DNA of 64,000 bases from Eledone cirrhosa. Its lineage: Eukaryota. Below are positions 3,974-51,182 of the stretch, in pieces; positions within the stretch are counted from its first letter, which is position 1, and each line of letters begins with the position of its first letter. The translations under genes were made by a program, and so were the position numbers. The notes beneath the pieces were generated by a model. The model saw only the letters and a list, made by a program, of their open reading frames with translations. It made no database searches and was not told the origin of the DNA. The stretch covers positions 23,684,001 through 23,748,000 of the forward strand of contig OZ024758.1 in NCBI GenBank assembly GCA_964016885.1, given 5' to 3'.

Positions 3974-3975
<2 letters not shown>
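3501..3975. mobile_element. Fold-back palindrome (arms of about 230 bp) carrying an HHR; Penelope-like terminal remnant (family A)
   Basis: Arms 3501-3729 and 3736-3975. The terminus TTGTTATACTT(T/G)GGGAGGGTCAT is shared with 30108 and 52830. Confidence 0.8.
3732..3775 (+). ncRNA. Type I hammerhead ribozyme motif (mirror copy on - strand)
   Basis: CTGATGA-T-GTTGCA(GATG)TGCAAC-GAAA-GAAC-TT. Stem I is imperfect. Confidence 0.65.
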
Positions 3976-11920: not shown

Positions 11921-12490
11921 TACGAGTGTCGGCTGAAAAGTTTAGGATAGGCCGACAACGAAGGAGTGATGTTAGAGCTATGAAATCTTGCATACATTAA
12001 TTTCAACTCTTCTTATTATTAACTGCATTGTTTCTTTCCAGGGACTATGTTGAAAAATAAGCCTCATTTGGTCATTCCATGAGAGTATCTTGGTCATAGG
12101 CCGACTACGAAGGAGTGATGCTAGGGCTGTGAAATCTTGCATACATTAATTTCAACTCTTCTTATTAGTCCCTGGAAAGAAACAATGCAGTTAATAATAA
12201 GAAGAGTTGAAATTAATGTATGCAAGATTTCACAGCCCTAGCATCACTCCTTCGTAGTCGGCCTATGACCAAGATACTCTCATGGAATGACCAAATGAGG
12301 TTTATTCTTCAACATAGTCCCTGGAAAGAAACAATGCAGTTAATATGTTGAAAAATAAACCTCATTTGGTCATTCCATGAGAATATCTCGGTCATAGGCC
12401 GACTCCGAAGGAGTGATGCTAGGGCTGTGAAATCTTGCATACATTAATTTCAACTCTTCTTATTAATAACTGCATTGTTTCTTTCCAGAG
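11921..12490. mobile_element. Mariner-like MITE with 149-bp internal units in direct and inverted orientation (related pieces 8445-8505, 20265-20296, 22866-23145)
   Basis: TACGAG(T/G)GTCGGCTGAAAAGTT terminus typical of mariner TIRs. Inverted block at about 12167-12345. Confidence 0.65.
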
Positions 12491-12587
12491 ACTCCTCAAG
12501 TGCTGTATAGAATCGTGTTCCTCTGTGGTTTGGGGCAGTACTGAGGAGAGTGTGTTTCTGTTTTTCAAAAATGAGGTATTGCGGGAT

Positions 12588-12797: not shown

Positions 12798-14044
12798 AAT
12801 AATAATAATAATAATAATAATAATGAAATTGTTTACAGTGCTCAGGTGCACTACAACTCGTCAAAGGTGCATGTATAGTACATAGAATAATGTACAAATA
12901 TCAGGAAAGTGAACAGTGAATGAGTCATGTTATACATGTGTGTGTATGGAGGGGGAATATCAGGTGTAGTGTTGGTGAATTTCAGGAGGCATGGAGGTTT
13001 TAAAGGATGCAGTGCCTTGGCAGCTAACAACTGATGCAGGGAGTTTGTTCCATGGAGGTTTTAAAGGATGCAGTGTCTTGGCAGCTAACAACTGATGCAG
13101 GGAGTTTGTTCCATGGAGGTTTTAAAGGATGCAGTGTCTCGACAGCTAACAACTGATGCAGGGAGTTTGTTCCATGGAGGTTTTAAAGGATGCAGTGTCT
13201 CGACAGCTAACAACTGATGCAGGGAGTCTGTTCCATGGAGGTTTTAAAGGATGCAGTGTCTCGACAGCTAACAACTGATGCAGGGAGTTTGTTCCATGGA
13301 GGTTTTAAAGGATGCAGTGTCTCGACAGCTAACAACTGATGCAGGGAGTTTGTTCCATGGAGGTTTTAAAGGATGCAGTGTCTTGTCAGCTTACAACTGA
13401 TGCAGGTAGTCTGTTCCATGGGGGTTTTAAAGGATGCAGTGTCTCGACAGCTAACAACTGATGCAGGTAGTTTGTTCCATGAAGGTTTTAAAGGATGCAG
13501 TGTCTTGTCAGCTAACAACTGATGCAGGTAGTTTGTTCCATGGAGGTTTTAAAGGATGCAGTGTCTCGACAGCTAACAACTGATGCAGGTAGTTTGTTCC
13601 ATGGAGGTTTTAAAGGATGCAGTGTCTCGACAGCTAACAACTGATGCAGGGAGTCTGTTCCATGGAGGTTTTAAAGGATGCAGTGTCTCGACAGCTAACA
13701 ACTGATGCAGGGAGTTTGTTCCATGGAGGTTTTAAAGGATGCAGTGTCTCGACAGCTAACAACTGATGCAGGTAGTTTGTTCCATGGAGGTTTTAAAGGA
13801 TGCAGTGTCTCGACAGCTAACAACTGATGCAGGGAGTCTATTCTATGGAGGTTTTAAAGGATGCAGTGTCTTGGCAGCTAACAACTGATGCAGGTAGTTT
13901 GTTCCATGGAGGTTTTAAAGGATGCAGTGTCTCGACAGCTAACAACTGATGCAGGTAGTATGTTCCATGGAGGTTTTAAAGGATGCAGTGTCTTGGCAGC
14001 TAACAACTGATGCAGGTAGTTTGTTCCATGCTTCAGCAACTCTG
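12798..14044 (-). mobile_element. CR1-type LINE 3' end (second 3' UTR copy at 34145-34278 +)
   Basis: - strand reads RVAEAWNKLPASVVSCQDTASFKTSM..., the CR1/L2 C-terminal WNxLP..VV..FK motif, followed by a UTR and (TTA)n tail. Confidence 0.75.
12990..14030. repeat. 61-bp minisatellite, about 17 copies, derived from the CR1 ORF end
   Basis: CATGGAGGTTTTAAAGGATGCAGTGTCTCGACAGCTAACAACTGATGCAGGGAGTTTGTTC repeated. Confidence 0.95.
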
Positions 14045-15522: not shown

Positions 15523-17794
15523 TGATCCAGCTCTGTGTTAGCTGATCTAACCCTGTGTTATCTGATCCAGCTCTGTGGTAGCTGATCCAACCCTGTGTTA
15601 TCTGATCCAGCCCTGTAGTATCTGATCCAGCCCTGTGTTATCTGATCCAACCCTGTGTTATCTGATCCAACCTTGTGTTATCTGATCCAACCCTGTATTA
15701 TCTGATCCAGCCCTGTAGTATCTGATCCAGCCCTGTGTTATCTGATCCAACCCTGTGTTATCTGATCCAACCCTGTGTTATCTGATCCAACCCTGTGTTA
15801 TCTGATCCAACCCTGTGTTATCTGATCCAACCCTGTGTTATCTGATCCAGCCCTGTGTTATCTGATCCAGCCCTGTGGTATCTGATCCAGCCCTGTGTTA
15901 TCTGATCCAGCCCTGTGTTATCTGATCCAACCCTGTGGTATCTGATCCAGCCCTGTGTTATCTGATCCAACCCTGTGTTATCTGATCCAGCCCTGTGTTA
16001 TCTGATCCAGCCCTGTGTTATCTGATCCAGCCCTGTGTTATCTGATCCAGCCCTGTGTTATCTGATCCAGCCCTGTGTTATCTGATCCAACCCTGTGTTA
16101 TCTGATCCAACCCTGTGTTATCTGATCCAACCCTGTGTTATCTGATCCAGCCCTGTGTTATCTGATCCAGCCCTGTGTTATCTGATCCAACCCTGTGTTA
16201 TCTGATCCAGCCCTGTGTTATCTGATCCAACCCTGTGTTATCTGATCCAGCCCTGTGTTATCTGATCCAACCCTGTGTTATCTGATCCAGCCCTGTGGTA
16301 TCTGATCCAGCCCTGTGTTATCTGATCCAGCCCTGTGTTATCTGATCCAGCCCTGTGGTATCTGATCCAGCCCTGTGTTATCTGATCCAACCCTGTGTTA
16401 TCTGATCCAGCCCTGTGTTATCTGATCCAACCCTGTGTTATCTGATCCAACCCTGTGTTATATGATCCAACCCTGTGTTATATGATCCAACCCTGTGTTA
16501 TCTGATCCAACCCTGTGTTATATGATCCAACCCTATGTTATCTGATTCAGCCCTGTGTTATCTGATTCAGCCCTGTGTTATCTGATTCAGCCCTGTGTTA
16601 TCTGATCCAACCTTGTGTTATCTGATCCAACCCTGTATTATCTGATCCAGCCCTGTAGTATCTGATCCAGCCCTGTGTTATCTGATCCAACCCTGTGTTA
16701 TCTGATCCAACCCTGTGTTATCTGATCCAACCCTGTGTTATCTGATCCAACCCTGTGTTATCTGATCCAACCCTGTGTTATCTGATCCAGCCCTGTGTTA
16801 TCTGATCCAGCCCTGTGGTATCTGATCCAGCCCTGTGTTATCTGATCCAGCCCTGTGTTATCTGATCCAACCCTGTGGTATCTGATCCAGCCCTGTGTTA
16901 TCTGATCCAACCCTGTGTTATCTGATCCAGCCCTGTGTTATCTGATCCAGCCCTGTGTTATCTGATCCAGCCCTGTGTTATCTGATCCAGCCCTGTGTTA
17001 TCTGATCCAGCCCTGTGTTATCTGATCCAACCCTGTGTTATCTGATCCAACCCTGTGTTATCTGATCCAACCCTGTGTTATCTGATCCAGCCCTGTGTTA
17101 TCTGATCCAGCCCTGTGTTATCTGATCCAACCCTGTGTTATCTGATCCAGCCCTGTGTTATCTGATCCAACCCTGTGTTATCTGATCCAGCCCTGTGTTA
17201 TCTGATCCAACCCTGTGTTATCTGATCCAGCCCTGTGGTATCTGATCCAGCCCTGTGTTATCTGATCCAGCCCTGTGTTATCTGATCCAGCCCTGTGGTA
17301 TCTGATCCAGCCCTGTGTTATCTGATCCAACCCTGTGTTATCTGATCCAGCTCTGTGTTATCTGATCCAGCTCTGTGTTATCTGATCCAACCCTGTGTTA
17401 TCTGATCCAACCCTGTGTTATATGATCCAACCCTGTGTTATATGATCCAACCCTGTGTTATCTGATCCAACCCTGTGTTATATGATCCAACCCTATGTTA
17501 TCTGATTCAGCCCTGTGTTATCTGATTCAGCCCTGTGTTATCTGATTCAGCCCTGTGTTATCTGATCCAACCCTGTGTTATCTGATTCAGCCCTGTGTTA
17601 TCTGATTCAGCTCTCTGTTATCTGATTCAGCTCTCTGTTATCTGATCCAACCCTGTGTTATCTGATTCAGCTCTCTGTTATCTGATCCAACCCTGTGTTA
17701 TCTGATCCAACCCTATGTTATCTGATCCATCCCTGTGTTATCTGATCCAACCCTGTGTTATCTGATCCAACCCTGTGTTATCTGATCCAGCCCT
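15523..17794. repeat. 20-bp minisatellite TCTGATCCARCCCTGTGTTA, about 113 copies
   Basis: Direct reading. Confidence 0.97.
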
Positions 17795-18173
17795 ATATAT
17801 ATACACATTTTAGTGCAGCATCAACGAAGCTTTAGGTTGCAGCCAAGCTAACCAATGCAGTTTCGGTGTGCATCTAAGCACTCAATGGAGAATTTTACCC
17901 CAGAGTTATAACATTACGTCTAGACAGCTTTGCAAATCAAATACAGCGACCGATAGGCTGGCCGCTTAGACCATAGCGACGAAAAAAAACTGAACTCAGG
18001 AAAAATATTTGACTGACCTGGACCGTTGCGTAGACATTACATGCAACACATAATGTGTACCATACAATACACATCACATGCAACACATAATGTGTACCAT
18101 ACAATACACATCACATGCAACATACAACATTTCCGCTAGGTTTCTGTAAATCCGAAATCAACAATATGTATAT

Positions 18174-18352
18174 ACATGGACACACTAGAAGAGGAAGACC
18201 AAGGTTAACGTATGTTGATGCCCTAAGGACAGACACTGGTCTGTTGGAGACGCAGGACATGGCAGTGATAATGAGGGACAGAGACCGCTGGAGAGAACTC
18301 GTCCATGGATCTCGGGAATTTTACCCGCCTTAGATAGATAGATAGATAGATA
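18174..18352 (+). mobile_element. RTE-type LINE 3' fragment with (TAGA)n tail
   Basis: HGHTRRGRPRLTYVDALRTDTGL..MRDRDRWR; near identical to 26798-26955. Confidence 0.8.
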
Positions 18353-18767: not shown

Positions 18768-19075
18768 ACGGCATGGTTATACGGAACAGTTATATATATA
18801 GAGAGATATATATACACATATCCATCCATATATATATATAGATGGATATGTAAATATCTCGATATCAGGAATATATTAGCACCAGAGCAGAAAGGGTAGA
18901 GAGGATGAAATAAAGCCAGATAAAATCAATGCTACAGAAATAATATAGATATCTCATCGTGGTGTAAATCCAGTATAAGATGCCTGTGGCATAACTTTTC
19001 CTTTCTCAATGATAGATTAATTATAAATGGTGAGGATAGAGGAGACTGTAAACAGATCAACAAAGTAAACTGACA

Positions 19076-19938
19076 CTCCGTCGGTTACGACGATGAGTGT
19101 TCCAGTTGATCTGATCAATAGAACAGCCTGCTTATATACATCTCTCTCTCTCTCTCTCTCTCTCTGGCATTCCGTCGGTTACGACGATGAGTGTTCCAGT
19201 TGATCTGATCAACGGAACAGCCTGCTTATATACATCTCTCTCTCTCTCTCTCTGGCATTCCGTCGGTTACGACGATGAGTGTTCCAGTTGATCTGATCAA
19301 TAGAACAGCCTGCTTATATACATCTCTCTCTCTCTCTCTCTGGCATTCCGTCGGTTACGACGATGAGTGTTCCAGTTGATCTGATCAACGGAACAGCCTG
19401 CTTATATACATCTCTCTCTCTCTCTCTCTCTCTGGCATTCCGTCGGTTACGACGATGAGTGTTCCAGTTGATCTGATCAATAGAACAGCCTGCTTATATA
19501 CATCTCTCTCTCTCTCTCTCTCTCTGGCATTCCGTCGGTTACGACGATGAGTGTTCCAGTTGATCTGATCAATAGAACAGCCTGCTTATATACATCTTTC
19601 TCTCTCTCTCTCTCTCTGGCATTCCGTCGGTTACGACGATGAGTGTTCCAGTTGATCTGATCAACGGAACAGCCTGCTTATATACATCTCTCTCTCTCTC
19701 TCTGGCATTCCGTCGGTTACGACGAGGAGTGCTCCAGTTGATCTGATCAACGGAACAGCCTGCTTATATACATCTCTCTCTCTCTCTCTCTGGCATTCCG
19801 TCGGTTACGACGATGAGTGTTCCAGTTGATCTGATCAATAGAACAGCCTGCTTATATACATCTTTCTCTCTCTTTCTCTGGCATTCCGTCGGTTACGACG
19901 ATGAGTGTTCCAGTTGATCTGATCAATAGAACAGCCTG

Positions 19939-19945
<7 letters not shown>
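19076..19945. repeat. Tandem of about 90 bp (10 copies) of the SINE family 2 3' end plus variable (TC)n
   Basis: The unit is the reverse complement of 48740-48804. Confidence 0.9.
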
Positions 19946-23692: not shown

Positions 23693-24604
23693 GTACACAC
23701 ACACGTACACACACACGTACACACACCTACCTACCTTCCTTCCTTCCTGCCTGCCTGCCTTCCTTCCTTCCTTCCTTCCTCCCTTCCTTCCTTCCGTCCT
23801 TCCTTCCTTCTTTCTTTCTTTCTTTCCTTCTTTCCTTCTTTCCTTCTTTCCTTCTTTCCTTCTTTCTTTCCTTCCTTCCTTTCTTTCTTTCTTTCTTTCC
23901 TTCTTTCCTTCTTTTTTTCCTTTCTTTCTTTCTTTCTTTCCTTCCTTCCTTCCTTCCTTCCTTCCTTCCTTCCTTCCTTCCTTCCTTCCTTCCTTCCTTC
24001 CTTCCATCCATCCATCCATCCATCCATCCAGCAACTTGCTACCATATTCAATTACAGAAACGTGCCACACATACATTCAACTAAAATACACTGAATTACA
24101 ATGTCTCAGTAGCATTCTCAGATCTGTATATTCACGATTTCATTCAATAACTGTTGTATTAATTAGCTTGTACTGCCATTGGCTTTTGATGATGATGCTA
24201 AATAATAATTCTTGTACTCAACGGTCGTATGCTTTAGTATGTTATCTCTACTACACTTTGAATATCTTAATTATGTAATCCAGACAATAATATATTAACT
24301 GGAAAAAATGAAACGATATTTCATTTCCCACTCTTAGTACGGCTGTTACTTAAATATAACCCTAACCCTAACTCTCTTATTAAATAAAATTCTTGGAAGC
24401 TATTTTAAATAAATACACCATCAAGTCTGTAGTACACGACTAAGCCATTTCGTGATGTCATTATGTTAAAATTGTCGTGTTACTTCTATCGATACTGAAT
24501 GGCAAAGGGAGATAATTTCGAGAAATTAAAAACAAATTTACAGTGAATTTACATGCTAAGAGAAAGTGAATCAGTGTTTTATTTTATTTATTTTTTTTTT
24601 GTTT

Positions 24605-25548
24605 AGGAGGTGAGAGGTAGACATGGTCGTGTGTTTCGGAGGAGGTGAGAGGTAGACATGGTCGTGTGTTTCGGAGGAGGTGAGAGGTAGACATGGTCGT
24701 GTGTTTCGGAGGAGGTGAGAGGTAGACATGGACGTGTGTTTCGGAGTAGGTGAGAGGTAGACATGGACGTGTGTTTCGGAGGAGATGAGAGGTAGACATG
24801 GACGTGTGTTTCGGAGGAGGTGAGAGGTAGACATGGTCGTGTGTTTTGGAGGAGGTGAGAGGTAGACATGGTCGTGTGTTTAGGAGGTGAGAGGTAGACA
24901 TGGTCGTGTGTTTTGGAGGAGGTGAGAGGTAGACATGGTCGTGTGTTTCGGAGGAGGTGAGAGGTAGACATGGACGTGTGTTTCGGAGGAGGTGAGAGGT
25001 AGACATGGACGTGTGTTTCGGAGGAGATGAGAGGTAGACATGGTCGTGTGTTTCGGAGGAGATGAGAGGTAGACATGGTCGTGTGTTTAGGAGGTGGTGA
25101 GAGGTAGACATGGTCGTGTGTTTCGGAGGAGGTGAGAGGTAGACATGGTCGTGTGTTTCGGAGGAGATGAGAGGTAGACATGGTCGTGTGTTTCGGAGGA
25201 GATGAGAGGTAGACATGGACGTGTGTTTCGGAGGAGGTGAGAGGTAGACATGGCCGTGTGTTTCTGAAGTGAGAGCTAGACATGGACGTGTGTTTCGGAG
25301 GAGGTGAGAGGTAGACATGGCCGTGTGTTTCTGAAGTGAGAGCTAGACATGGACGTGTGTTTCTGAAGTGAAAGCTAGACATGGACGTGTGTTTCGGAGG
25401 AGGTGAGAGGTAGACATGGCCGTGTGTTTCTGAAGTGAGAGCTAGACATGGACGTGTGTTTCTGAAGTGAAAGCTAGACATGGACGTGTGTTTCTGAAGT
25501 GAGAGCTAGACATGGACGTGTGTTTCTGAAGTGAGAGCTGGACATGGT
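24605..25548. repeat. 35-bp minisatellite grading into a 32-bp variant
   Basis: GAGGAGGTGAGAGGTAGACATGG(T/A)CGTGTGTTTCG repeated. Confidence 0.95.
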
Positions 25549-26420: not shown

Positions 26421-26423
<3 letters not shown>

Positions 26424-26609
26424 CGAAGGAAATGTGGTAAGGAACCAGGTGGACCATAACGCACCAAAGTACTCAATACTTGAGGTAGTAGAGTGGGTAA
26501 TAGGAACCAGTAAGACCCCGACAGCTGAGCTCAAGCCGTTTCGACGGCTAATTCTCAGAATTAGCCGTCGAAACGGCTTGAGCTCAGCTGTCGGGGTCTT
26601 ACTGGTTCC

Positions 26610-26614
<5 letters not shown>
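26421..26614. mobile_element. Family C element with terminal fold-back (copies 26986-27178, 35648-35815, 46000-46117)
   Basis: Shared TAACGAAGGAAATGTGGTAAGGAACCAG end. The palindrome is centred on GACGGCTA..TAGCCGTC followed by GAAACGGCTTGAGCTC. Confidence 0.8.
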
Positions 26615-26650
<36 letters not shown>

Positions 26651-26703
26651 TGTATGTATATGTATGCGTGTATATGTATATACATATATAAATGCATATA
26701 TGT

Positions 26704-26952
26704 ATGTCAAAAGTGACACAGAGGAGACTGAGGTTAGCTGGACATGCTCACCGACATCCAGAGTTGACATTGCACTCAGTGCTCCTGTGGGAGCCCCTAC
26801 ATGGACACACTAGAAGAGGAAAACCAAGGTTAACGTATGTTGATGCCCTAAGGACAGACACTGGTCTGTTGGAGACGCAGGACATGGCAGCGATAATGAG
26901 GGACAGACACCGCTGGAGAGAACTCGTCCATGGATCTCGGGAATTTTACCCG

Positions 26953-26955
<3 letters not shown>
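26704..26955 (+). mobile_element. RTE-type LINE ORF C-terminal fragment
   Basis: RRLRLAGHAHRH..LLWEPLHGHTRRGKPRLTYVD..MRDRHRWR matches the RTE-clade C-terminus. Confidence 0.8.
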
Positions 26956-26989
<34 letters not shown>

Positions 26990-27177
26990 AAAAAGTATGA
27001 CCCCGACGGCAGAGCTCAAGCCGTTTCGACGGCTATTTCTGGACTGAAATAGCCGTCGAAACGGCTTGAGCTCGGCCGTCGGGGTCATACTTTTTCCTAT
27101 TACCCACTCTACTACCCTAAGTATTGAGTACTCTGGTGCTTATGGTCCATCTGGTTCCTTACCACAACTCCTTCGTT

Positions 27178-27589
27178 ATTAATAAATGGAAACTATATTT
27201 ATAAAACCATATTTATTTCATTATACATATTTCAGGGATACCAAATTAAATTATGGTATGCCTTCATCAGACAAAATACAATATATAATAGTTTTACAAA
27301 TAAGCTTTAACGTACCCAGATGACTTCCAAAAACAATGGTTGCATTTTAATAGGGTACGTCAAAGCTTATTTGTAAAACTGTTATATATTGTATTTTGTC
27401 TGATGAAGGCATACCATAATTTAATTTGGTATCCCTGAAATATGTATAATGAAATAAATATGGTTTTATAAATATAGTTTCCATTTATTAATATCGTATA
27501 TCTACTCCAAATACTTGTCGAGTGCTTTATATCAGTTATAAAAATATTTACTTGTTGTATCCCAACAATTTTAAATAGAACTTTTGCAT
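27178..27589 (+). mobile_element. Family B Penelope-like terminal remnant with inverted duplication and HHR-like core (27400-27440)
   Basis: Arms 27178-27317 and 27353-27492. CTGATGA-AGGCATACCA..TGGTATCCCT-GAAA. Confidence 0.75.
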
Positions 27590-28438: not shown

Positions 28439-28447
<9 letters not shown>

Positions 28448-29000
28448 TAAAAAAATAATGAATAAAACAATGAAACAGTTCCTTATATTAAACAAAAAAA
28501 GTTCATTATTTAACGATCGTTTCTAGGATATATATGTGTTAGAATTGGCATGCATATTCAACAGATCTATGTACAAAATTATACAAAATTATACAAACTA
28601 TCAAGATTAAATATACATACCAACACATATATATGCCGTCTTCAGAAATAATTATTATTTCTGAAGACGGCATATATATGTGTTGGTATGTATATTTAAT
28701 CTTGATAGTTTGTATAATTTTGTATAATTTTGTACATAGATCTGTTGAATATGCATGCCAATTCTAACACATATATATCCTAGAAACGATCGTTAAATAA
28801 TGAACTTTTTTTGTTTAATATAAGGAACTGTTTCATTGTTTTATTCATTATTTTTTTAATATTTTATCTTGACTCTGTATTCCGTTTATCTTTCACCAAA
28901 AGTGATATTTCATTGCATCTCTTCTTTCCATGATATCCGGATTACATTGAGTTCTTCATACGGATTGGACACTACCGTAAACTCTTGGTAGATTTATCTA
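28439..29000. mobile_element. Element with a near-perfect 430-bp palindrome (centre 28653) containing two opposed HHRs
   Basis: Arms 28439-28652 and 28654-28867. Confidence 0.85.
28654..28801 (+). ncRNA. Type I hammerhead ribozyme with about 115-nt stem II domain
   Basis: ATTATTT-CTGAAGA-[GGCATATATATGTGTTGG..CTAACACATATATATCC]-GAAA-CGATCG-TT-AAATAAT. Confidence 0.75.
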
Positions 29001-29322: not shown

Positions 29323-29534
29323 AATATATATATTTATAAATATATATATATATAAATATATATATTTAAGTAACAGCCGTACTAAGAGTGGGAAATGAAA
29401 TTTCGTTTCATTTTTTCCGTGTATCGTTTTCGGTGTACCCGGCCGATTAACCCACTCGATATGCAAATTGGGCTACTCAGCCGTTAATATGCATAAGGTA
29501 AGTATATACGTTCAACAATCTGGCAGGAAGGTAT

Positions 29535-29577
29535 ACGTTGCTGACGATAGCTAATAAGCTTGAAACTAGTACAGCGT
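29535..29577 (+). ncRNA. Minimal type I hammerhead ribozyme
   Basis: ACGTTG-CTGACGA-TAGCT(AATA)AGCTT-GAAA-CTAG-TA-CAGCGT. Confidence 0.85.
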
Positions 29578-30045
29578 TCCTTTGTCAGTGTTGAACAAAC
29601 GAGCAACGATGGTTGCTGGACACTACGGCTTAATACGGGATGTTTGTTTACAAACACACCGAGCATTATAATAAATGTTCGGTGCATCCATACGTACATA
29701 TATATATGTGTGCATGTATGTATGTATGTATGTATGTATGTATATATATATATATATACATACTACTGTACGTCTGTATACATATATGTATGTACGTGTA
29801 CATACTTATATTTAAGTAACAGCCGTACTAAGAGTGGGAAATGAAATTTCGTTTCATTTTTTCCGTATATATTTATACATATATATATATATGTATAAAT
29901 ATATATATATATATATATAAATATAAATATATATATTTATACATATATATATATATATAAATATATATATTTATACATATATATATATATAAATATATAT
30001 ATTTATACATATATATATAAATATATATACTTATACATATATATA

Positions 30046-31237: not shown

Positions 31238-31671
31238 TACGATATTAAATAAATGGAAACTATATTTATAAAACCATATTTATTTCATTATATATATTTC
31301 AGGGATATCATATTAACAATATGCTATGCCTTCCTCAGACAAAATACAATATAAACAGTTTTATAGATAAATAGATTTGACATACCGTACAACATCGACT
31401 TGTATCAACTTTTCAAATACAAGTCGATGTTGTACGGTATGTCAAATCTATTTATCTATAAAACTGTTTATATTGTATTTTGTCTGAGGAAGGCATAGCA
31501 TATTGTTAATATGATATCCCTGAAATATATATAATGAAATAAATATGGTTTTATAAATATAGTTTCCATTTATTTAATATCGTAAATATACTCCAAATAC
31601 TTGTCGAGTGCTTTTATATCAGTTATAAATATTTACTAGTTGTAACCCAACAATTTAAATATAACTTTCCA
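31238..31671 (+). mobile_element. Family B remnant with inverted duplication; HHR-like core 31484-31525
   Basis: Arms 31238-31405 and 31417-31584. CTGAGGA-stem-GAAA. Confidence 0.75.
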
Positions 31672-33665: not shown

Positions 33666-34103
33666 CATTTCGGAAGAAGGATCAGGATGGAGTGAGAGGT
33701 GCTGCACCCCAGTCGTTTTTATGAAAGGTGGGTGAAAGTGGCGAGAATGGCCCGTGTGAATGGGCCTTCTCTTTACATGAGCCTGTAGGTGGAAAAGAGG
33801 AAGGAACGAGGGAGCACCCCCTCTCTGTGCTCCTGAGGAAAAGGGTTGCCCACTTTTTTCGGGGGTGTGTGCGACCCCCCAAGGCGCCTCCTCTCTATTG
33901 AGGATTTTGTTATAAATTTTATTTTTTGTTATATTTTATAACAAAATCCTCTACTGAGGATTTTGTTATAATTCTATTTTTTGTTATATTTTATTTTATT
34001 TTTATATATTGTTATTGCCTCCTCCCTATTGAGGACGCCTTGTTTTGTAAACTCCCCCCATTGTACTTGTCCCACTTTTGATGCCCTTGTGGCAAATAAA
34101 AGA

Positions 34104-34853: not shown

Positions 34854-34954
34854 AAAATAACAGATTAAAGTTTAAGCAAAGAATCGCTGCTTTCACCCTT
34901 AACTGTTAAGGGTGAAAGCAGAGATTCTTTGCTTAAACTTTAATCTGTTATTTT
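34854..34954. repeat. Near-perfect palindrome of about 100 bp
   Basis: ..TTTCACCCTTAAC-T-GTTAAGGGTGAAA.. with arms of about 50 bp. Confidence 0.9.
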
Positions 34955-35230: not shown

Positions 35231-35428
35231 AGATCAAAAGATGGTTAAAGGAGTTCCATGTATTTTATTATGCGCATTTCAAAAACAAACATCATCATGC
35301 AATAATATTTGTGTTTTCATCAGATAAAACAGGAGAACATGATATGAAGGCTAAAAAACACTTGTGGATAGTGCAGTTTTAAATCAACATATCACAAGTG
35401 TTTTTTAGCCTTCATATCATGTTCTCCT

Positions 35429-35497
35429 GTTTTATCTGATGAAAACACAAATATTATTGCATGATGATGTTTGTTTTTGAAATGCGCATAATAAAAT
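35429..35497 (+). ncRNA. Type I hammerhead ribozyme in fold-back 35223-35536 (mirror copy on - strand at about 35262-35330)
   Basis: GTTTTAT-CTGATGA-AAACACAAATATTATT(GCAT)GATGATGTTTGTTTTT-GAAA-TGCGCA-TA-ATAAAAT. Confidence 0.85.
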
Positions 35498-36027
35498 ACA
35501 TGGAACTCCTTTAACCATCTTTTGATCTTATATTATGCATACTCCAGTCCTACAAACTGTAGAGTGCTTCTTATCCGATATCTGCATTGCTTTATTGTAC
35601 TACAATAAAACTCACCTCCTACATATATATATATATATATATATATATAACGAACGAAGTGTGGTAAGATACCAGGTGGACCATAACGCACCAGAGTACT
35701 CAATACTTAGGGTAGTAGAGTCGGTAATAGGAAAATATTCAAGAGCTCAAGCCGTTTCGACGGCTATCTCTAGAAATAGCCGTCGAAACGGCTTGAGCTC
35801 TGCCATCGGGGTCTTGAACAATCTTCTATAATTCTACATTCTGTTTACTCTCTTCTCAGTACTGCCATTCCTATATCTCTTCTCTCTCTCTCTTCTCCCC
35901 CCCCTCTCTCTCCCTTTATCTCTCTCTCCCCCCTCTCCCCTTATCCTAATCTTAGTACTATCATGATCGATATTTTTACATTCAACTCTAACTGTTTATT
36001 TCTTATTTCATATCACTTCAGCTCCAT

Positions 36028-37065: not shown

Positions 37066-39380
37066 GGGCGGTGGATTGGCAGTATCGGTAGAGGGTCGGA
37101 CGCCATGCCTTCCAGCATAGAGTTACGCCCCTTTATGGTCTGAGTTCAAATCCCGCCGAGGTTAACTTTTACCTTATCGTTCATCTTACGGGGGGGGGGG
37201 TGTTTCGATAAAACAAAGTACCAGTAATGCACTGGGAGTAATTGCTGGCCTTGTGCCAAAAGTAGAAACGATTATGTACGCATGATATAAGAGAATATAA
37301 CAAAAAGAAACCCGATATACTTCTTATATCCTTATTATATCTTCATCATATAACAAAATATAGCGAAAGGGAAACACGATATCTCTGCAAAAAGTAGTTA
37401 CCGAGATAAAACAAAGTACCAGTAATGCACTGGGAGTAATTGCTGGCCTTGTGCCAAAAGTAGAAACGATTATGTACGCATGATATAAGAGAATATAACA
37501 AAAAGAAACCCGATATACTTCTTATATCCTTATTATATCTTCATCATATAACAAAATATAGCGAAAGGGAAACACGATATCTCTGCAAAAAGTAGTTACC
37601 GAGATAAAACAAAGTACCAGTAATGCACTGGGAGTAATTGCTGGCCTTGTGCCAAAAGTAGAAACGATTATGTACGCATGATATAAGAGAATATAACAAA
37701 AAGAAACCCGATATACTTCTTATATCCTTATTATATCTTCATCATATAACAAAATATAGCGAAAGGGAAACACGATATCTCTGCAAAAAGTAGTTACCGA
37801 GATAAAACAAAGTACCAGTAATGCACTGGGAGTAATTGCTGGCCTTGTGCCAAAAGTAGAAACGATTATGTACGCATGATATAAGAGAATATAACAAAAA
37901 GAAACCCGATATACTTCTTATATCCTTATTATATCTTCATCATATAACAAAATATAGCGAAAGGGAAACACGATATCTCTGCAAAAAGTAGTTACCGAGA
38001 TAAAACAAAGTACCAGTAATGCACTGGAGGTAATTGCTGGCCTTGTGCCAAAAGTAGAAACAATTATTTATGCATGATATAAGAGAATATAACAAAAAGA
38101 AACCCGATATACTTCTTATATCCTTATTATATCTTCATCATATAACAAAATATAGCGAAAGGGAAACACGATATCTCTGCAAAAAGTAGTTACCGAGATA
38201 AAACAAAGTACCAGTAATGCACTGGGGTAATTGCTGGCCTTGTGCCAAAAGTAGAAACGATTATGTATGCATGATATAAGAGAATATAACAAAAAGAAAC
38301 CCGATATACTTCTTATATCCTTATTATATCTTCATCATATAACAAAATATAGCGAAAGGGAAACACGATATCTCTGCAAAAAGTAGTTACCGAGATAAAA
38401 CAAAGTACCAGTAATGCACTGGGGTAATTGCTGGCCTTGTGCCAAAAGTAGAAACGATTATGTATGCATGATATAAGAGAATATAACAAAAAGAAACACG
38501 ATATACTTCTTATATCCTTATTATATCTTCATCATATAACAAAATATAGCGAAAGGGAAACACGATATCTCTGCAAAAAGTAGTTACCGAGATAAAACAA
38601 AGTACCAGTAATGCACTGGGAGTAATTGCTGGCCTTGTGCCAAAAGTAGAAACGATTATGTACGCATGATATAAGAGAATATAACAAAAAGAAACCCGAT
38701 ATACTTCTTATATCCTTATTATATCTTCATCATATAACAAAATATAGCGAAAGGGAAACACGATATCTCTGCAAAAAGTAGTTACCGAGATAAAACAAAG
38801 TACCAGTAATGCACTGGAGGTAATTGCTGGCCTTGTGCCAAAAGTAGAAACAATTATTTATGCATGATATAAGAGAATATAACAAAAAGAAACCCGATAT
38901 ACTTCTTATATCCTTATTATATCTTCATCATATAACAAAATATAGCGAAAGGGAAACACGATATCTCTGCAAAAAGTAGTTACCGAGATAAAACAAAGTA
39001 CCAGTAATGCACTGGAGGTAATTGCTGGCCTTGTGCCAAAAGTAGAAACAATTATTTATGCATGATATAAGAGAATATAACAAAAAGAAACCCGATATAC
39101 TTCTTATATCCTTATTATATCTTCATCATATAACAAAATATAGCGAAAGGGAAACACGATATCTCTGCAAAAAGTAGTTACCGAGATAAAACAAAGTACC
39201 AGTAATGCACTGGAGGTAATTGCTGGCCTTGTGCCAAAAGTAGAAACGATTATGTATGCATGATATAAGAGAATATAACAAAAAGAAACCCGACATACTT
39301 CTTATATCCTTATTATATCTTCATCATATAACAAAATATAGCGAAAGGGAAACACGATATCTCTGCAAGAAATAGTTACA
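37066..39380 (+). repeat. SINE family 1 followed by an 11-copy, 197-198-bp tandem of SINE tail plus flanking DNA
   Basis: GATAAAACAAAGTACCAG at 37207, 37405, 37603, 37801 ... 39185. Confidence 0.95.
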
Positions 39381-40057
39381 GAGGAACTACATCGTAAAAT
39401 AACATTTAAAAGGATAAAAAGAAGAAACTTAATGGCAAACGCAACTATACTATATAGAATAAGTAATGAAAATGGTAAATTGGACAAATATAATAGCTTA
39501 ACTCAACATTACAGATGAAAATAAATTTGAACAGTTAGACAATTTAAGTTCCGGAAGCGATCAATATAAAAAAAAAATGGAGAGACGGAAATCATGTCTC
39601 TTGGCTATCTCCCATTAAATAATATTCTGATAGCTTACTGTCAATTGTTTAAATGCACGAATGGCAGCCAAATAGGCGTTAAATCGTTCATATTTTCTAT
39701 AGTGTAAGTGTACTGTATATCTTTCTCTCTCTCTCTTCCTCCCCTCTCTCTCCCCCTCTCTCTTCCCCCACATCTCTCTCTCTCTTCCCCGCCCCCTCTC
39801 TCCCCGCTCTCTCCTCCACATTTAGCTCTCTCTCTCGCATATCACTCTCTCTCTCGTATCTCTCTCTCTCTCTCGCATATCTCTCTCTCGGCTCTCTCTC
39901 TCTCATATCTCTCTCTCGCATATCACTCTCTCTCTCTCTCGCATATCACTCTCTCTCTCTCTCTCCTCTCTCTCTCGCATCACTCTCTCTCTCAGTCGTA
40001 TTACTTCTGATAATTGATATACTGTATTAATATATAATTCTGTTTACTACTAAAGAT

Positions 40058-40102
<45 letters not shown>

Positions 40103-41615
40103 ATATATTAATAAATGGAAACTATATTTATAAAACCATATTTATTTTATATATATTTCAAGAGAAACCAAAGCAAATTATGGTGCGCTTTCATCAGATA
40201 AAATACAGATTTGTTTTATAAATAAATATTGACATACCCACAGACTTCAAATCTCGTTTCAATAACCATAAATGTTCCTTTACGAATATTCGTAAAAAAT
40301 CTTCAACTTGTCTATCCAACTTATTTTGGAACTTAAAAGCTAAGAATATTAACTATTCTTTATTTTGGGAAATTATCTCCAAAGCTCCTTCATACATGGG
40401 TCTATCCAAAATTGCTCCCTTTGCGTTGAAGAAATATTCTTTATACTAAAAAGTAAGAACTCTATTAATTTGCGAAATAATTTATTTGGTTCTTGTAAAT
40501 ATCGTTTAAATTCAACTTTTAAATATATATATAAAATGTAATGTATGGTTAATCTCCTTTACATAGTTTTCTATATCCAACCACCTACAACATCATCCTT
40601 CAGATTATATCTATATATGATTCATATATATTTAATTTAATTTACTTTCTATTATCTCTATCTCATAAATATATTATTACACTTATCAATAGATTATAAC
40701 CTTTTTTATATGACTACTTGAAATTCTTTTAAGGAAAATTTTCCTTGAAAAACTTTCGGAAGGTTTTAGAAAATTCTTTGAAAGTTCCTTTGAAAGATGA
40801 AAAAACCATTATTTTCATATCTTACAATATTTTTATATCTTCAAACATTTTAAATATATGTATTCAAATATTTATATATATGTGGAATAACATATGATTT
40901 TTATATATAGGTTTTTTATATATATGTGGAATAACCTATGGTTTATGTTTTAACTATATTGTTAAGATAACATTTTTAACTTTATAACATTTAATCCTTG
41001 GAATCATTTGAGATCATAAAAAATCACTTCTAACTTCCTTTATACTTCCTTACTGTTTTTATAATATAATTAAGTAGTTATTCCTTTGTAAACTCTCGTA
41101 AATTTTCATAAATTTAGAATTATTTGGATGTTTAAATTTTGACTTACAATTATTAATAAATATAATTTTGCCAAACTTACTTTAATAAAATAAACTATAC
41201 TAGATTTTCTATAATGTAAAATACTATATATTTATTTAAATAATTTATAATCTTTAACATAGACATCTAAACCAATATATTATTACTAATACATCTTAAT
41301 ATATTAAACCAATAATTTATTACTAATACATCTTAATATAATATAAATACTTTTATTTTAATTTTTAATATTAATATTAAATTATTAAGGCAAATTTTAA
41401 TCTTTAATTTTGATTTCTAATTTTTAATTTTAATACAATTTTTCAACCTATCATTATAAATATTATAATCACAATGTAATGAACCCTACATTCTAAATAT
41501 TATTCTTCCACGTTAATCTTATTTCTTCATTCATTCTGACTTTCTTCAATATCACTATGTATAATCGTTCTTTCTTTCCTGTGTATATATGTGTGTGTGT
41601 ATATATATATGTGTG

Positions 41616-41646
<31 letters not shown>

Positions 41647-41687
41647 GTGTGTGTGTGTATATGTGTGTGTGTATATATGTGTGTGTG

Positions 41688-41753
<66 letters not shown>

Positions 41754-41993
41754 TATATATATACGTGTGTGTGTGTATATATATCTGTGTACAAATATAT
41801 ATATGTGTGGATATATATATTTTTACGTGTGTGTGTATACAAACATGCATGCGCACACAAACGCATGTACACACAAACACGCACACACACACACATTCGC
41901 ACACACACATTCACACACACATACATTCACACACACACACATACATTCACACACACACACAAGCACACATACACAAACACACACATACACATA

Positions 41994-42032
<39 letters not shown>

Positions 42033-42993
42033 TCACGCACACGCACACACACATTCACACAAACACGCACACACATTCACACTCACTCACTCACTCACTC
42101 ACTCACTCACTCACTCACTCACTGTAAAGGCAATGTTAAAGTTCAATATCCTTTATATCTGATTTTTCTTATTTCTTTGTTAGTGATTTTAATGTTTAAT
42201 TGGGAACAATACAGTCGCTGCGTTAATTAGCGTTTCAAGACCTTCTCGGCTTCATCTTCTTAATGAACTATTGATGAAAGCATCGCTATAGAGACAGTAA
42301 CAGATTCCATTCTGCCTAATTTGATCATATTTGTATTATCTACACCTACCGATCAATAAAGTCTCTCAGCAATCAGGAAAGACTTTAGTTTGTGTCTATA
42401 GGTATGGATTTCTCGAAAAATAAAATATATTTTGTATATATTTTGTTTATATACATATATATATTTTTATATATAGAAAACGTGATCTGTATAGAACGTT
42501 TTTTAACGTCCAGACCTTTTTTGACAATATATATGTGTATATATTTTGTTTATACATACATATATATGTATAAACGGTTTGATCTCTTCCGTCGGGGTTA
42601 AACATTTTCCTATATATATATATATATATATGTAAAAGTTCTATTTAAATTGTTGGGATACAACAAGCAAATATTTTTATAACTGAACAAATATTTGGAG
42701 TATTTGTTAATATCTTATTTTTACTCCAAATATTTGTTGATGGTTTTATAAATATAGTTTCCATTTGTTAATATCTTATTTTTACTCCAAATATTTGTTG
42801 ATGGTTTTATAAATATAGTTTCCATTTGTTAATATCGTATTTTTACTCCAAATATTTGTTGAGTTTATTTATAAAACTGATCTATATTATATTTTATCTG
42901 ATGAAAGCACACCATAATTTAACTTGGTGTCCTTGAAATATGTATAATGAAATAAATATGGTTTTATAAATATAGTTTCCATTTGTTAATATC

Positions 42994-42996
<3 letters not shown>
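40103..42996 (+). mobile_element. Probable 5'-truncated Penelope-like copy: inverted family B end, endonuclease remnant, AT-rich UTR, direct family B end (HHR-like core 42898-42938)
   Basis: 40103-40238 is the reverse complement of the family B terminus, which recurs in direct orientation at 42865-42996. Continuity across the gap is inferred. Confidence 0.5.
40243..40541 (+). pseudogene. Penelope-like element GIY-YIG endonuclease C-terminal remnant, one frameshift
   Basis: Manual translation DFKSRFNNHKCSF..STCLSNLFWNLK..YSLFWEIISKAPSY, frameshift near 40410, then NCSLCVEEIFFILK..INLRNNLFGSCKYR..stop. Fits the PLE pattern FKxRxxNHxxSF..LS..W.LK..W.I..CxLCxxE..N.R. Confidence 0.75.
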
Positions 42997-43044
<48 letters not shown>

Positions 43045-43047
<3 letters not shown>

Positions 43048-43562
43048 ATGTAAATATAATGTATTTTGCAATACACTTTATGCTTAATTAAAAGCATTTT
43101 GAAGACCGTAAGCTATTGTTTTAAAGTAGTGACAAATTCACTCACTTCGATCTCAGCAAACAGGAGGAGATAAGCCGACATGACATGTTTCGCTTTTGTT
43201 GAAGCTTATCAAGGCCAACTACCCCGCCCGTCTGCTGAGATCAATGATGTTATATTCTTATAGAAATCTAGTAAATAATCAGGAGCTGATTATGCAGAGC
43301 GGTTGTTGGTCAGGCAGAAATTAAAAATTATTTACTAGATTTCTATAAGAATATAACATCATTGATCTCAGCAGACGGGCGGGGTAGTTGGCCTTGATAA
43401 GCTTCAACAAAAGCGAAACATGTCATGTCGGCTTATCTCCTCCTGTTTGCTGAGATCGAAGTGAGTGAATTTGTCACTACTTTAAAACAATAGCTTACGG
43501 TCTTCAAAATGCTTTTAATTAAGCATAAAGTGTATTGCAAAATACATTATATTTACATCCAT
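43045..43562. mobile_element. Fold-back palindrome with arms of about 235 bp, flanked by (TA)n
   Basis: Arms 43045-43279 and 43327-43562. Confidence 0.85.
43390..43433 (+). ncRNA. Type I hammerhead variant with U3-A8 core
   Basis: GGCC-TTGATAA-GCTT(CAACAA)AAGC-GAAA-CATGTCATG-TC-GGCT. Confidence 0.7.
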
Positions 43563-43626: not shown

Positions 43627-43789
43627 ATATATATACACACAAACAAACATTTAATTTAATTTCCAATTTTATTTTTTAGAATACTACTCCATTCGAGGCG
43701 GACTGGTCATACTGTTATTTGGATAATTCTTGGTGGGTTACGAGATTAGGCTAAAATATAAAAAAATATATAGCTAAAAAAAGCCTTTA

Positions 43790-45612
43790 TTGAACGATGG
43801 GCTTACCTGAGAGGTGACGACTGCGCAGGTCAATTTTAAGACCCAGTCTGCTTCTCTATTCCATAGATTAGCCACGATTCTGAGCCAATAATAAACCACG
43901 GGCTTACCTGACAGGTGACGACTGCGCAGGTCAATTTAAGACCCAGTCTGCTTCTCTATTCCATAGATTAGCCACGATTCTGAGCCAATAATAAACGACG
44001 GGCTTACCTGACAGGTGACGACTGCGCAGGTCAATTTTAAGACCCAGTCTGCTTCTCTATTCCATAGATTAGCCACGATTCTGAGCCAGTAATAAACGAC
44101 GGGCTTACCTGACAGGTGACGACTGCGCAGGTCAATTTTAAGACCCAGTCTGCTTCTCTATTCCATAGATTAGCCACGATTCTGAGCCAGTAATAAACGA
44201 CGGGCTTACCTGACAGGTGACGACTGCGCAGGTCAATTTAAGACCCAGTCTGCTTCTCTATTCCATAGATTAGCCACGATTCTGAGCCAATAATAAACGA
44301 CGGGTTTACCTGAGAGTTGACGACTGCGCAGGTCAATTTTAAGACCCAGTCTGCTTCTCTATTCCATAGATTAGCCACGATTCTGAGCCAGTAATAAACG
44401 ACGGGCTTACCTGACAGGTGACGACTGCGCAGGTCAATTTTAAGACCCAGTCTGCTTCTCTATTCCATAGATTAGCCACGATTCTGAGCCAATAATAAAC
44501 GACGGGTTTACCTGAGAGTTGACGACTGCGCAGGTCAATTTTAAGACCCAGTCTGCTTCTCTATTCCATAGATTAGCCACGATTCTGAGCCAGTAATAAA
44601 CGACGGGCTTACCTGACAGGTGACGACTGCGCAGGTCAATTTTAAGACCCAGTCTGCTTCTCTATTCCATAGATTAGCCACGATTCTGAGCCAATAATAA
44701 ACCACGGGCTTACCTGAGAGGTGACGACTGCGCAGGTCAATTTTAAGACCCAGTCTGCTTCTCTATTCCATAGATTAGCCACGATTCTGAGCCAATAATA
44801 AACCACGGGCTTACCTGACAGGTGACGACTGCCCAGGTCAATTTTAAGACCCAGTCTGCTTCTCTATTCCATAGATTAGCCACGATTCTGAGCCAATAAT
44901 AAACCACGGGCTTACCTGACAGGTGACGACTGCCCAGGTCAATTTTAAGACCCAGTCTGCTTCTCTATTCCATAGATTAGCCACGATTCTGAGCCAATAA
45001 TAAACCACGGGCTTACCTGACAGGTGACGACTGCCCAGGTCAATTTTAAGACCCAGTCTGCTTCTCTATTCCATAGATTAGCCACGATTCTGAGCCAATA
45101 ATAAACCACGGGCTTACCTGACAGGTGACGACTGCCCAGGTCAATTTTAAGACCCAGTCTGCTTCTCTATTCCATAGATTAGCCACGATTCTGAGCCAAT
45201 AAACGACGGGCTTACCTGACAGGTGACGACTGCCCAGGTCAATTTTAAGACCCAGTCTGCTTCTCTATTCCATAGATTAGCCACGATTCTGAGCCAATAA
45301 TAAACGACGGGTTTACCTGAGAGGTGACGACTGCCCAGGTCAATTTTAAGACCCAGTCTGCTTCTCTATTCCATAGATTAGCCACGATTCTGAGCCAATA
45401 ATAAACCACGGGCTTACCTGACAGGTGACGACTGCGCAGGTCAATTTTAAGACCCAGTCTGCTTCTCTATTCCATAGATTAGCCACGATTCTGAGCCATT
45501 ATAGCTGAAAAACCCAATAATAAACCACGGGCTTACCTTGATAGGCGACGACTGCCCAGTCCAGTTTTAAGAACCAGCCCGCTTTTCTATTCCACAGATT
45601 TGCCACAAATAC
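43790..45612. repeat. 101-bp minisatellite, 17 copies plus one diverged terminal copy
   Basis: GGGCTTACCTGACAGGTGACGACTG..ATAAACCAC repeated. Confidence 0.95.
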
Positions 45613-45965: not shown

Positions 45966-46249
45966 AACATATACATACAGACACGTGTTTATATATATAT
46001 AACGAAGGAAATGTGGTAAGGAACCAGATGGACCATAACGCACCAGAATACTCAATACTTAGGGTAGTAGAGTGGGTAATACTTGAGCTCTGCCGTCGGG
46101 GTCATACTTTTTCCTATATATATATATATGTTAAAACAATGAAATAAAAAAATCAAGTCATTAGAGATATACTTCACTGCTTTACGATCGTTTCTAGATG
46201 ATTATAATACAATATATTTTTCATAACTGACTATATATAAATATATATA

Positions 46250-46686
46250 TGCAAAAGTTTTATTTAAATTGTTGGGATACAACAAGCAAATATTTTTATA
46301 ACTGATATAAAGCACTCGACAAATATTTGGAGTAGATATATGATATTAATAAATGGAAACTATATTTATAAAACCATATTTATTTCATTATATATATTTC
46401 AAGGATAGCAAGTTACATTATGGTATGCCTTCATCAGACAAAATACAATATATAACAGTTTTATAAATAGACATTGACGTACCCCTTTAAAAATTGACCG
46501 TTGATTTGGAGGCCTCCAAAAACAACGGTCAATTTTTAAAGGGGTACGTCAATGTCTATTTATAAAACTGTTATATATTGTATTTTGTCTGATGAAGGCA
46601 TACCATAATGTAACTTGGTATCCTTGAAATATATATAATGAAATAAATATGGTTTTATAAATATAGTTTCCATTTATTAATATCGT
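46250..46686. mobile_element. Family B remnant with a spacerless palindrome centred on GGAGGCCTCC; HHR-like core 46589-46629
   Basis: Arms about 46341-46512 and 46513-46685. Confidence 0.75.
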
Positions 46687-49880: not shown

Positions 49881-49942
49881 TTTGTCTGTCTGTCTGTGTT
49901 TCATCTCCGGACAACAACTTATCCTCTTCTTTAAGACCCACT

Positions 49943-51182
49943 ACAGAAGGAAGGTGAGAGTGGAGAGAGAGAGAGGTGTAAATTCGCTGAAAGGTGGGTG
50001 AATGTGGCGAAAATGGCCCGAGTGATTGAACCTTGTCTGTATATAAACCAGTAGGTTGAGGAAGACGGGAAGACCTTCAAAACGCGCTCCTGGTGTCGAG
50101 GGTTGTTCTATCCGCGGGGTGTAAAACAACTCCGCAGTAACATTCCCCTCTGTTGGGGATTTCGATTGCTTTATTTTGTTAGCCATTATTATTGTTTTGG
50201 CAGTATCGGTAGAGGGTGGGACGCCATGCTTTGCAGCATAGTGTTACGGCCCTTTATGGTCTGAGTTCAAATCCCGCCGAGGTTAACTTTGCCTTTCATC
50301 CTTGCGGGGTCGATAAAATAAAGTACCAGTAATACACTGGAATAATTGCTGGCCTTGTGCCAAAAGTAGAAACAATTATTGCTAAATGGGCGGTGAATTG
50401 GCAGTATCGGTAGCGGGTCGGACGCCATGCTTTGACGCCTAGAGTTACGGCCCTTGCCATTCTGAGTTCAAATCCCGCCGAGATTTACTTTGCCTTTCAT
50501 CCTTACGGGGTCGATAAAATAAAGTACCAGCAATGTACTGGGTAATTGCTGGCCTTGTGCTAAAAATAGAAACAATTATTATTGTTAAAGGGCGGTAGAT
50601 TGGCAGTATCGGTAGATGGTCGGACGCCATGCTTTGCAGCAAAGAGTTACGGCCCTTTACGGCCTGAGTTCAAATCCCGCCGAGGTTAACTTTGCTTTTC
50701 ATCCTTACGATGTCGATAAAATAAAGTACCAGTAATGCACTGGGGTAATTACCGGCCTTGTGCCAAAAGTAGAAATAATTATTGCTAAAGATTTTATGGA
50801 AAACCCCCGCCGTCACGTCTTATAACGTCCCATTTGTGTACGCCCCCTGTGGCAAATAAAGAAAGATATCTATCTAGGGCCTTCTCTGTATATAAACCTG
50901 TGATATTGAAGAAGATAAACAGAGGGAAGACGGGAACACCTATAAAACGTGCCCCTGGTGTTGAGGGTCGTTGTATCCACGGGGTATAAAACAACCCCGC
51001 AGTAACGCCCTCACCCCTATTGGGGATTTCGATTGTTATTTTATTATATATAGTTTATTGTTATTTATTAATGTTAAAGTTATATGATTTTTATGTAAAA
51101 ACCCCACCGTCACGTCTTGTAATGTCCCATTTCTTGTACGCCCTTGTGGCAAATAAAGAAAGATATCTCTCTGTCTGTCTGT
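49943..51182 (+). mobile_element. Further Tx1-like 3' UTR fragments interleaved with three tandem SINE family 1 copies (50197-50780)
   Basis: GTGGCAAATAAAGAAAGATATCT ends at about 50870 and 51165; SINE consensus. Confidence 0.75.

Follow-up and report, generated by a model that had tools for sequence, protein, structure and literature searches.

Penelope-like elements (PLEs) of the Hydra clade, for which 27 families are described, have lost the CCHH motif and possess CxxC and CxH motifs around conserved E and N residues of the endonuclease; they insert into (TA)n targets, carry canonical hammerheads and generally measure less than 3 kb in total (Craig et al. 2021, PMC8557442). Penelope/Poseidon, Nematis and Neptune are represented by rows without CxxC and CxH in the accessible part of the published alignment (PMC8557442). 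An inverted 5'-truncated copy, optionally combined with a tail, is a known arrangement in PLEs (PMC8557442, PMC3846280). As mechanistic model we use the Anolis element PAc: its protein, a member of the Poseidon clade, cleaves both strands of AT-rich sites and extends them, and reverse transcription initiates at two internal start sites bounding the tail, the evidence for the latter coming from in vitro work on this one Anolis element and from genomic mapping of insertion ends (PMC11167929).

Here we describe a locus in a 64,000-nt window, i.e. the whole stretch of DNA that was analysed, where the remnant of a PLE endonuclease adjoins one arm of a repeat designated family B. With the Penelope/Poseidon elements D. 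virilis Penelope and Anolis PAc, family B has in common the inverted and partial-tandem copies, the optional tail, a (predicted) hammerhead in the terminal repeat and the AT-rich target, whereas the endonuclease of these elements is without the C-terminal CxxC and CxH and thereby unlike the remnant; in PAc, the ribozyme overlaps the start of the ORF (PMC11167929). The long helix II and the very short palindromic helix III of family B are those of the minimal hammerheads of PLEs, but helix I comprises 8 bp as compared to 4–5 bp (Cervera and De la Pena 2014, PMC4209133). Pairs of hammerheads on opposite strands, 100–700 bp apart, were already reported in the same work, and this is what the fold-backs are. 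Non-LTR retrozymes, i.e. non-coding hammerhead sequences proposed to derive from PLE pLTRs, form head-to-tail tandems, every unit of which carries a ribozyme (bioRxiv 10.64898/2026.07.22.740005), whereas the ribozymes of family B are found in inverted pairs or as single copies, and the 61-nt tandem units found in its copy at 42 kb are devoid of a ribozyme. As compared to the known Hydra elements, only the last ~100 codons are present at our locus, the His of CxH is replaced by Tyr, RT, linker, GIY and YIG are lacking, and no sense 3' UTR is attached.

Table 1. Features of the remnant locus and family B insertions in the window.
Feature	Position	Strand	Basis or remark
(TA)n run, left target flank (approximate bounds)	40064–40098		sequence
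Inverted, tailless, 5'-truncated family B arm (pLTR/3' end)	40103–40239	-	nhmmer E 2.1e-24
GIY-YIG endonuclease remnant, piece 1	40240–40410	+	57 aa, Hydra clade; phmmer and profile, E 3.7e-27
Endonuclease remnant, piece 2	40413–40538	+	-1 frame; CxxC, E, N, CxH with Tyr for His; profile E 4.6e-6
Candidate right boundary	40483–40533	+	40 nt like last 43 nt of B tail, then (AT)5 at 40523
AT-rich DNA, compound microsatellites, end of another repeat family	40542–42631		no B homology, no plus-strand hammerhead core
Inverted B tail, left end of separate B insertion	42632–42703	-	(TA)n on left
~2.6 tandem copies of 61-nt B 3' fragment	42702–42863	+	include first ~26 nt of tail
Direct tailless B copy	42864–42995	+	intact type I hammerhead motif, core 42898; (TA)n on right
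Family B fold-back	27174–27587	+	tailless inverted arm and tailed arm
Family B fold-back	31240–31669	+	repeat comparison
Family B fold-back	46251–46685	-	centre perfectly palindromic

In the first-pass annotation, a frameshifted frame of about 99 codons had been placed at 40243–40541, directly behind an inverted family B terminus, and its motifs had been taken to fit the C-terminus of a PLE endonuclease. The frame turned out to be real, starting at 40240 instead: it consists of two pieces separated by a -1 shift (Table 1), and translation yields ~100 codons in total up to the stop of piece 2 at 40539–40541. A further -1 shift near 40506 would lead to xKF, as present after CxH in homologues, and to a stop at 40521–40523; K occupies position H+3 of CxH in 42 of 63 homologues. 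The remnant is absent from the list of stop-to-stop ORFs of the window comprising at least 90 aa.

An exhaustive phmmer search with the 57 aa of piece 1 against 1.84 billion proteins returned 659 matches with E ≤ 1e-3, the best reaching 5.5e-9. A profile was built from 149 of the 150 matches listed (of 659), one repeat protein of 1122 aa having been removed by a length cut at 600 aa, and searched against the 3078 stop-free six-frame segments of the window. Two plus-strand segments were detected, namely 40222–40446, which covers model positions 69–129, and 40353–40538, which covers positions 123–166 and is collinear with piece 1 (E-values in Table 1). As piece 2 played no part in collecting the profile sequences, its match represents an independent check. 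No other endonuclease remnant was found with this profile in the window, the third-best of the 3078 segments scoring E 0.31. When both pieces were joined with an X at the break, the eight best alignments listed displayed 40–48% identity over ~89 residues. Pfam and NCBIfam reported nothing at cut-off for either piece, word-index homologue searches with the remnant gave no match, a PDB sequence search returned nothing relevant, and a search of the ESM Atlas remained uninformative with a best score of 0.77. The empty Pfam/NCBIfam and word-index searches and the low Atlas score would suit a chance reading frame in AT-rich DNA. However, the 659 matches, the independent collinear match of piece 2 and the degree of identity leave this explanation a practically negligible probability, and we regard it as ruled out. 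The remnant is the C-terminus of a PLE GIY-YIG endonuclease, as had been proposed from its motifs.

GIY and YIG themselves are both missing from the remnant, while the C-terminal two thirds of the domain are kept; the RT was removed from this copy by 5' truncation. Among the 150 homologues listed, 91 exhibit a YIG-like motif ahead of FK, just upstream of the matched part, 63 contain CxxC..E followed by CxH, and 31 the CxC..CP linker pattern. YRDD upstream of the same endonuclease was seen in one of the 150, the sufficiently long protein P0070, which unites YRDD, the CxC..CP linker, YIG, CxxC and CxH in a single chain. Prokaryotic genome contigs were scanned with P0070 for contaminating full-length copies, and none of 72 pattern matches was confirmed. 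Since YIG is located five residues ahead of the FK motif in 90 of the 91 homologues, the remnant starts ~3 codons past the position of the lost YIG. Pfam GIY-YIG was matched by 7 of 67 homologues at E ≤ 0.1 (best 1e-5). Homologue P0003, and not the remnant sequence, served for modelling of the fold (67-row alignment, mean pLDDT 86.6); the top three structure matches of this model were I-TevI (Z 9.2, rmsd 2.4, 89 aligned), T4 EndoII (Z 8.4) and UvrC (Z 6.4). Foldseek with the same model detected no match with E ≤ 1e-3 and ranked T4 EndoII first (E 0.39).

The earlier label Penelope remains valid in the sense of a Penelope-like element, but does not apply to the clade. In the remnant, CxxC is located at 40413, E and N are in register, and the position of CxH is occupied by C-x-Y, Tyr being one base away from His. 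It aligns to the Hydra-type LSxxIWxLK stretch and has no His pair, indicating absence of the CCHH finger as far as its His half is concerned, the Cys half being truncated away. A CxxC, a CxH-like motif and no His pair are not what a CCHH endonuclease of the Penelope/Poseidon type possesses. Therefore, judged by the signature CxxC...E...N...CxH, the remnant belongs to the Hydra clade and not to Penelope/Poseidon. In addition, (TA)n adjoins the left end of the remnant insertion, as in Hydra-type targets. The regions bearing the other characters of the clade, namely the CxCX5C linker and the DKT and RWK motifs, lie outside the preserved sequence. Hydra-1_Obim, the Octopus bimaculoides consensus (PMC8557442 supplement), resembles the remnant in clade, in the spacing of its motifs, with G-S-C likewise ahead of the CxH position, and in its (TA)n preference. 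However, when compared by eye, merely ~26 of 88 residues (about 30%) are identical, and the hammerhead and 3' UTR of Hydra-1_Obim are unlike family B. This by-eye comparison, i.e. low identity combined with a different ribozyme, suggests that the remnant represents another family. A published description of this family was not found in the literature searched, which lies mostly outside subscription journals; Repbase/Dfam may hold the family. For Octopus vulgaris, 31 recently active Penelope-like families are described, the word "hammerhead" occurring nowhere in the accessible text (PMC13282606), and the accessible parts of PMC6962438 and PMC8969392 contain nothing specific on the family.

The inverted family B arm meets the coding remnant at 40239/40240 with zero spacer, which bears out the direct neighbourhood claimed before. 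The arm at 40103–40239 adjoining position 40240 corresponds to an inverted 5'-truncated copy of the 3' end located next to the 5' end, as in EN+ PLEs. A rough estimate of chance adjacency, considering five tailless arms, a tolerance of ±5 nt and 128 kb of strand positions, amounts to ~4e-4. The seamless junction and the orientation expected for the inverted copy indicate that family B is likely the 3' end of the remnant's family, and we hold it for highly probable that B forms the 3' end of the element encoding this endonuclease. Because neither sense-strand B homology nor a plus-strand hammerhead core could be detected after the coding remnant (40541–42631), the link between endonuclease and B rests on one junction; we read the missing sense B as a loss from a decayed copy. 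The link is limited to family B, strictly to the subfamily of the copies at 40 and 42 kb, and does not include the other fold-backs of the window.

The lack of sense B after the remnant would also agree with a chimera, in which the inverted B arm and the endonuclease stem from different PLE families and were brought together by template switch or by subsequent deletion between neighbouring insertions, the autonomous partner of B being another element. At least four other hammerhead-bearing repeats reside in the window, and past the junction the first ~12 nt are similar to the beginning of the B sense arm at 27318, which could be a microhomology. However, the similarity lacks significance, its score being reached by 197 of 1918 background windows, orientation and seamless junction fit the usual inverted-copy layout, and the low estimate for chance adjacency speaks against a fortuitous contact. 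Moreover, no cross-mobilisation between PLE types was seen according to the accessible text of PMC3846280. A chimera is therefore very improbable in our assessment, and assignment of family B to the 3' end of the remnant's element remains the preferred reading.

Five insertions in the window carry family B: the three fold-backs at 27, 31 and 46 kb, the insertion spanning 42632–42995, and the arm at 40 kb (Table 1). A descriptor for type I hammerheads returned 14 sites for the window, 7 of which are in family B arms, and each of 30 block shuffles yielded no site. In the arm at 40 kb, the core (from 40197, minus strand) is kept, and a 3-nt deletion damages stem I, by which the descriptor failed. 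When seven distinct rows were aligned, one of them being the related repeat at 35 kb, 97.1% of 136 cells were paired and five pairs were changed on both sides; none of 500 shuffles reached this degree of pairing. Related rows entered this count and also yielded the structure, so that the covariation provides support, but not a probability. When six copies were subjected to free MFE folding, stem II was recovered in five, among them the 40-kb copy with a shifted register, and the full three-way junction in none. Local Rfam scans yielded no hammerhead or HDV-like family at the 40-kb or 42-kb copy; in the whole-window scan, all of the 150 matches listed (of 422) were miRNA families below cut-off, and there was no hammerhead among them. 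The hammerhead-like character that the first-pass annotation had ascribed to the family B end is backed by descriptor and covariation, i.e. the terminal repeat carries a predicted type I hammerhead.

In all four complete B insertions, one outer end has a tail and the other has none, and seven of the eight outer ends adjoin (TA)n. The tail comprises 86–91 nt (72 nt at 42 kb), which is longer than the 30–40 nt usual in PLE papers and counts against our reading. In three independent insertions, the tailed arm has a length of 270, 264 and 263 nt, the arms within each of the three simple fold-backs differ at 0–1 of 125 sites, and the inverted arms at 27 and 40 kb end at the same homologous base. 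A conserved GGTAYGT near the 5' end of the B arms (27354, 31436, 46543, 40238) resembles a 5' splice site, and both of these inverted arms end right at it; PLE terminal repeats can contain introns (PMC4209133). We also considered whether the B sense arm as a whole is a decayed endonuclease coding region and rejected this idea, as the middles do not align (125–233 of 500 shuffles as high). Derivation of the ~35 nt upstream of the GGTAYG anchor from the endonuclease was likewise unsupported (153–845 of 1918 background windows as high).

A direct B terminus at 42865–42996 had been noted before as following the remnant. Indeed, a B copy without tail is present ~2.3 kb downstream (Table 1), but it is probably not the other end of the remnant insertion. 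It is preceded by its own partial tandem and its own inverted tail, it belongs to an insertion with (TA)n flanks of its own, and its differences from the arm at 40 kb amount to 11 of 117 sites and 3 gaps, as compared to 0–1 of 125 within fold-backs. Because of its own tail, its own flanks and this divergence, we assign it to a separate insertion of the same subfamily. If both copies were nevertheless parts of one long insertion, inverted B and endonuclease would be followed by a 2.3-kb spacer, captured or inserted later, and by the direct B as the true 3' pLTR. Such an architecture has a parallel in Pen1_Av (Adineta), whose 3' pLTR lies 0.9–1.5 kb away behind captured host DNA (PMC3846280). 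It would account for the four diagnostic sites that the copies at 40 and 42 kb have in common and that are missing from the other six arms (27, 31 and 46 kb), as well as for (TA)n at both outer ends, and the excess of private changes in the 40-kb arm is only marginal (p 0.04–0.27 depending on site scoring). Yet a single insertion would have two tailless ends rather than one tailed and one tailless end, it disagrees with the divergence and the private tail and flank of the 42-kb copy, and the total size general for Hydra elements, as given above, also counts against it. Six-frame reading of 40523–41580 and 42125–42620 revealed nothing recognisable. We consider one long insertion distinctly unlikely and keep to two separate ones.

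Concerning the right end of the remnant, an end-anchored comparison with the B tails ranked the site at 40523 first among 982 (AT)n starts for three of four tails and 15th for the fourth. In this anchored test, which was designed post hoc after the match had been noticed, the score of the 42-kb tail was reached by none of 3000 shuffles and none of 2052 AT-rich 50-mers, and that of the 31-kb tail by 18 of 3000 and 38 of 2052, respectively. The unanchored test was weak (best tail, 40/1000 shuffles and 7/548; other three tails, 135–437/1000 shuffles), and the tail-like bases 40483–40522 are also explained by endonuclease codons. Microhomology deletions have been reported for PLEs (PMC3846280), and a deletion or template jump from one short homology to the other would account for the absence of the 3' UTR as well as for (AT)5 next to it. 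That 3' UTR and ribozyme were lost by such an event at the homology in 40483–40522 is a serious possibility, to which we give slightly less than an even chance.

Taken together, the region from 40103 to ~40530 can with good probability be regarded as one dead, 5'-truncated insertion of a Hydra-clade PLE into (TA)n, having family B as its 3' end. In the scenario that we envisage, the RT-endonuclease protein would nick AT-rich DNA and reverse transcription would be primed at the RNA's 3' end. One cDNA, initiated at the tailless site, would have halted after ~140 nt to give the inverted arm, while the other cDNA, or a fold-back continuation, would have reached the endonuclease coding region and halted just short of YIG. 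Joining of both cDNAs head to head at their truncated 5' ends would produce one tailed and one tailless end. The fold-backs at 27, 31, 42 and 46 kb may result from the same reaction with both copies halted early, and may have been made by sister subfamilies. The remnant would later have decayed, losing 3' UTR and ribozyme, possibly by the deletion or template jump between coding end and B-tail end, and the direct B copy at 42864–42995 would likely reflect a separate insertion of the same subfamily. Instead of the route via two start sites, the second arm could just as well originate from self-priming at a palindrome, as has been proposed (PMC3846280); this would fit the perfect centre of the 46-kb fold-back.

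The nearly constant length of the three tailed arms, the two inverted arms ending at one base and the single tailed end of each complete insertion allow for still another reading. The B fold-backs could have been copied from a short (~265-nt) non-autonomous hammerhead RNA whose 5' end is fixed, and their insertion could be due to a Hydra-clade enzyme that acts as a dimer and in every case employs both RT start sites, one for each target strand. The segment 40103–40533 would then be a fifth closed insertion, with 420 nt similar in length to the others, and the RT would have jumped there straight from the end of the tail to the coding region of the endonuclease. We deem this unlikely, though worth mention; if true, two-site priming in both directions would be recorded in the genome by the B fold-backs.

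The window is AT-rich and dense in microsatellites (masking of short-period repeats covers 15,405 of its 64,000 bases) and harbors many dispersed repeats and fold-backs. Fold-back families other than B are located at 3502–3974, 11947–12493, 26500–26612, 28442–28864, 35231–35528, 43046–43560 and 60436–60649. The long fold-backs at 3502–3974, 11947–12493, 28442–28864, 34854–34954 and 43046–43560 have arms that are 92–99% identical and produced no match to the hammerhead descriptor. The fold-back at 35231–35528, a different repeat weakly similar to family B (nhmmer E 0.0014), contains a related hammerhead with a palindromic stem III, the cores being located at 35323 (minus strand) and 35436 (plus strand), and is probably a second Hydra-type family. 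At 60436–61842, a 540-bp unit is repeated in tandem with one hammerhead-like motif per unit (cores 60513, 61053, 61593) and an inverted arm ahead at 60436; this may be a retrozyme-like array or a PLE partial tandem. Single hammerhead motifs have their cores at 29541 and 52738, the former between identical 54-nt direct repeats at 29366 and 29812 (region 29366–29865), a repeat that recurs inverted at 24301.

Another repeat family, characterized by a strong internal palindrome and (TA)n flanks, is present at 26423–26612, 26988–27176, 35650–35815, 45991–46081 and 42572–42613, and one of its copies has served, at its end, as the insertion site of the B fold-back at 27174. A repeat of ~186 nt occurs at 554–739 and in more than 30 further copies, which are dispersed, inverted or arranged in tandem (period 195–198 bp; arrays 1–739 and 37207–39383); it has what we take to be SINE-like internal box motifs, and ARAGORN detected no tRNA in it. 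An open frame of 270 aa at 48846–49658 matches Pfam zf-RVT (E 6.5e-7) and is what remains of the C-terminus of a non-LTR retrotransposon; shorter pieces related to it are present at 33666–33937 and 49899–50078. The short frame at 26692–26954, presumably an RTE-type LINE C-terminus, has no Pfam match and forms a pair of copies with 18173–18329 that are 98% identical over 157 nt. Tandem arrays at 12990–14030, 15525–17798, 19074–19940, 24600–25548 and 43782–45606 have periods of ~61, 20, 90, 35–70 and 101 bp, respectively.

The remnant is a real and well-supported, but ordinary, decayed insertion of a Hydra-clade PLE, from which no new enzyme or system emerges. The junction had originally been considered as in-window evidence for the autonomous element that makes the fold-backs. 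This holds for family B through the seamless contact, but not for the other fold-back families, which have no demonstrated partner; the junction thus likely names the element behind one local fold-back family. The value of this finding lies mainly in annotation, as family B, which automatic annotation might label a MITE or a miRNA-like hairpin, can be assigned to a Hydra-clade PLE. Should the rule of one tailed end and the fixed arm length hold genome-wide, the fold-backs would be natural products for testing the two-start-site model of PLEs.
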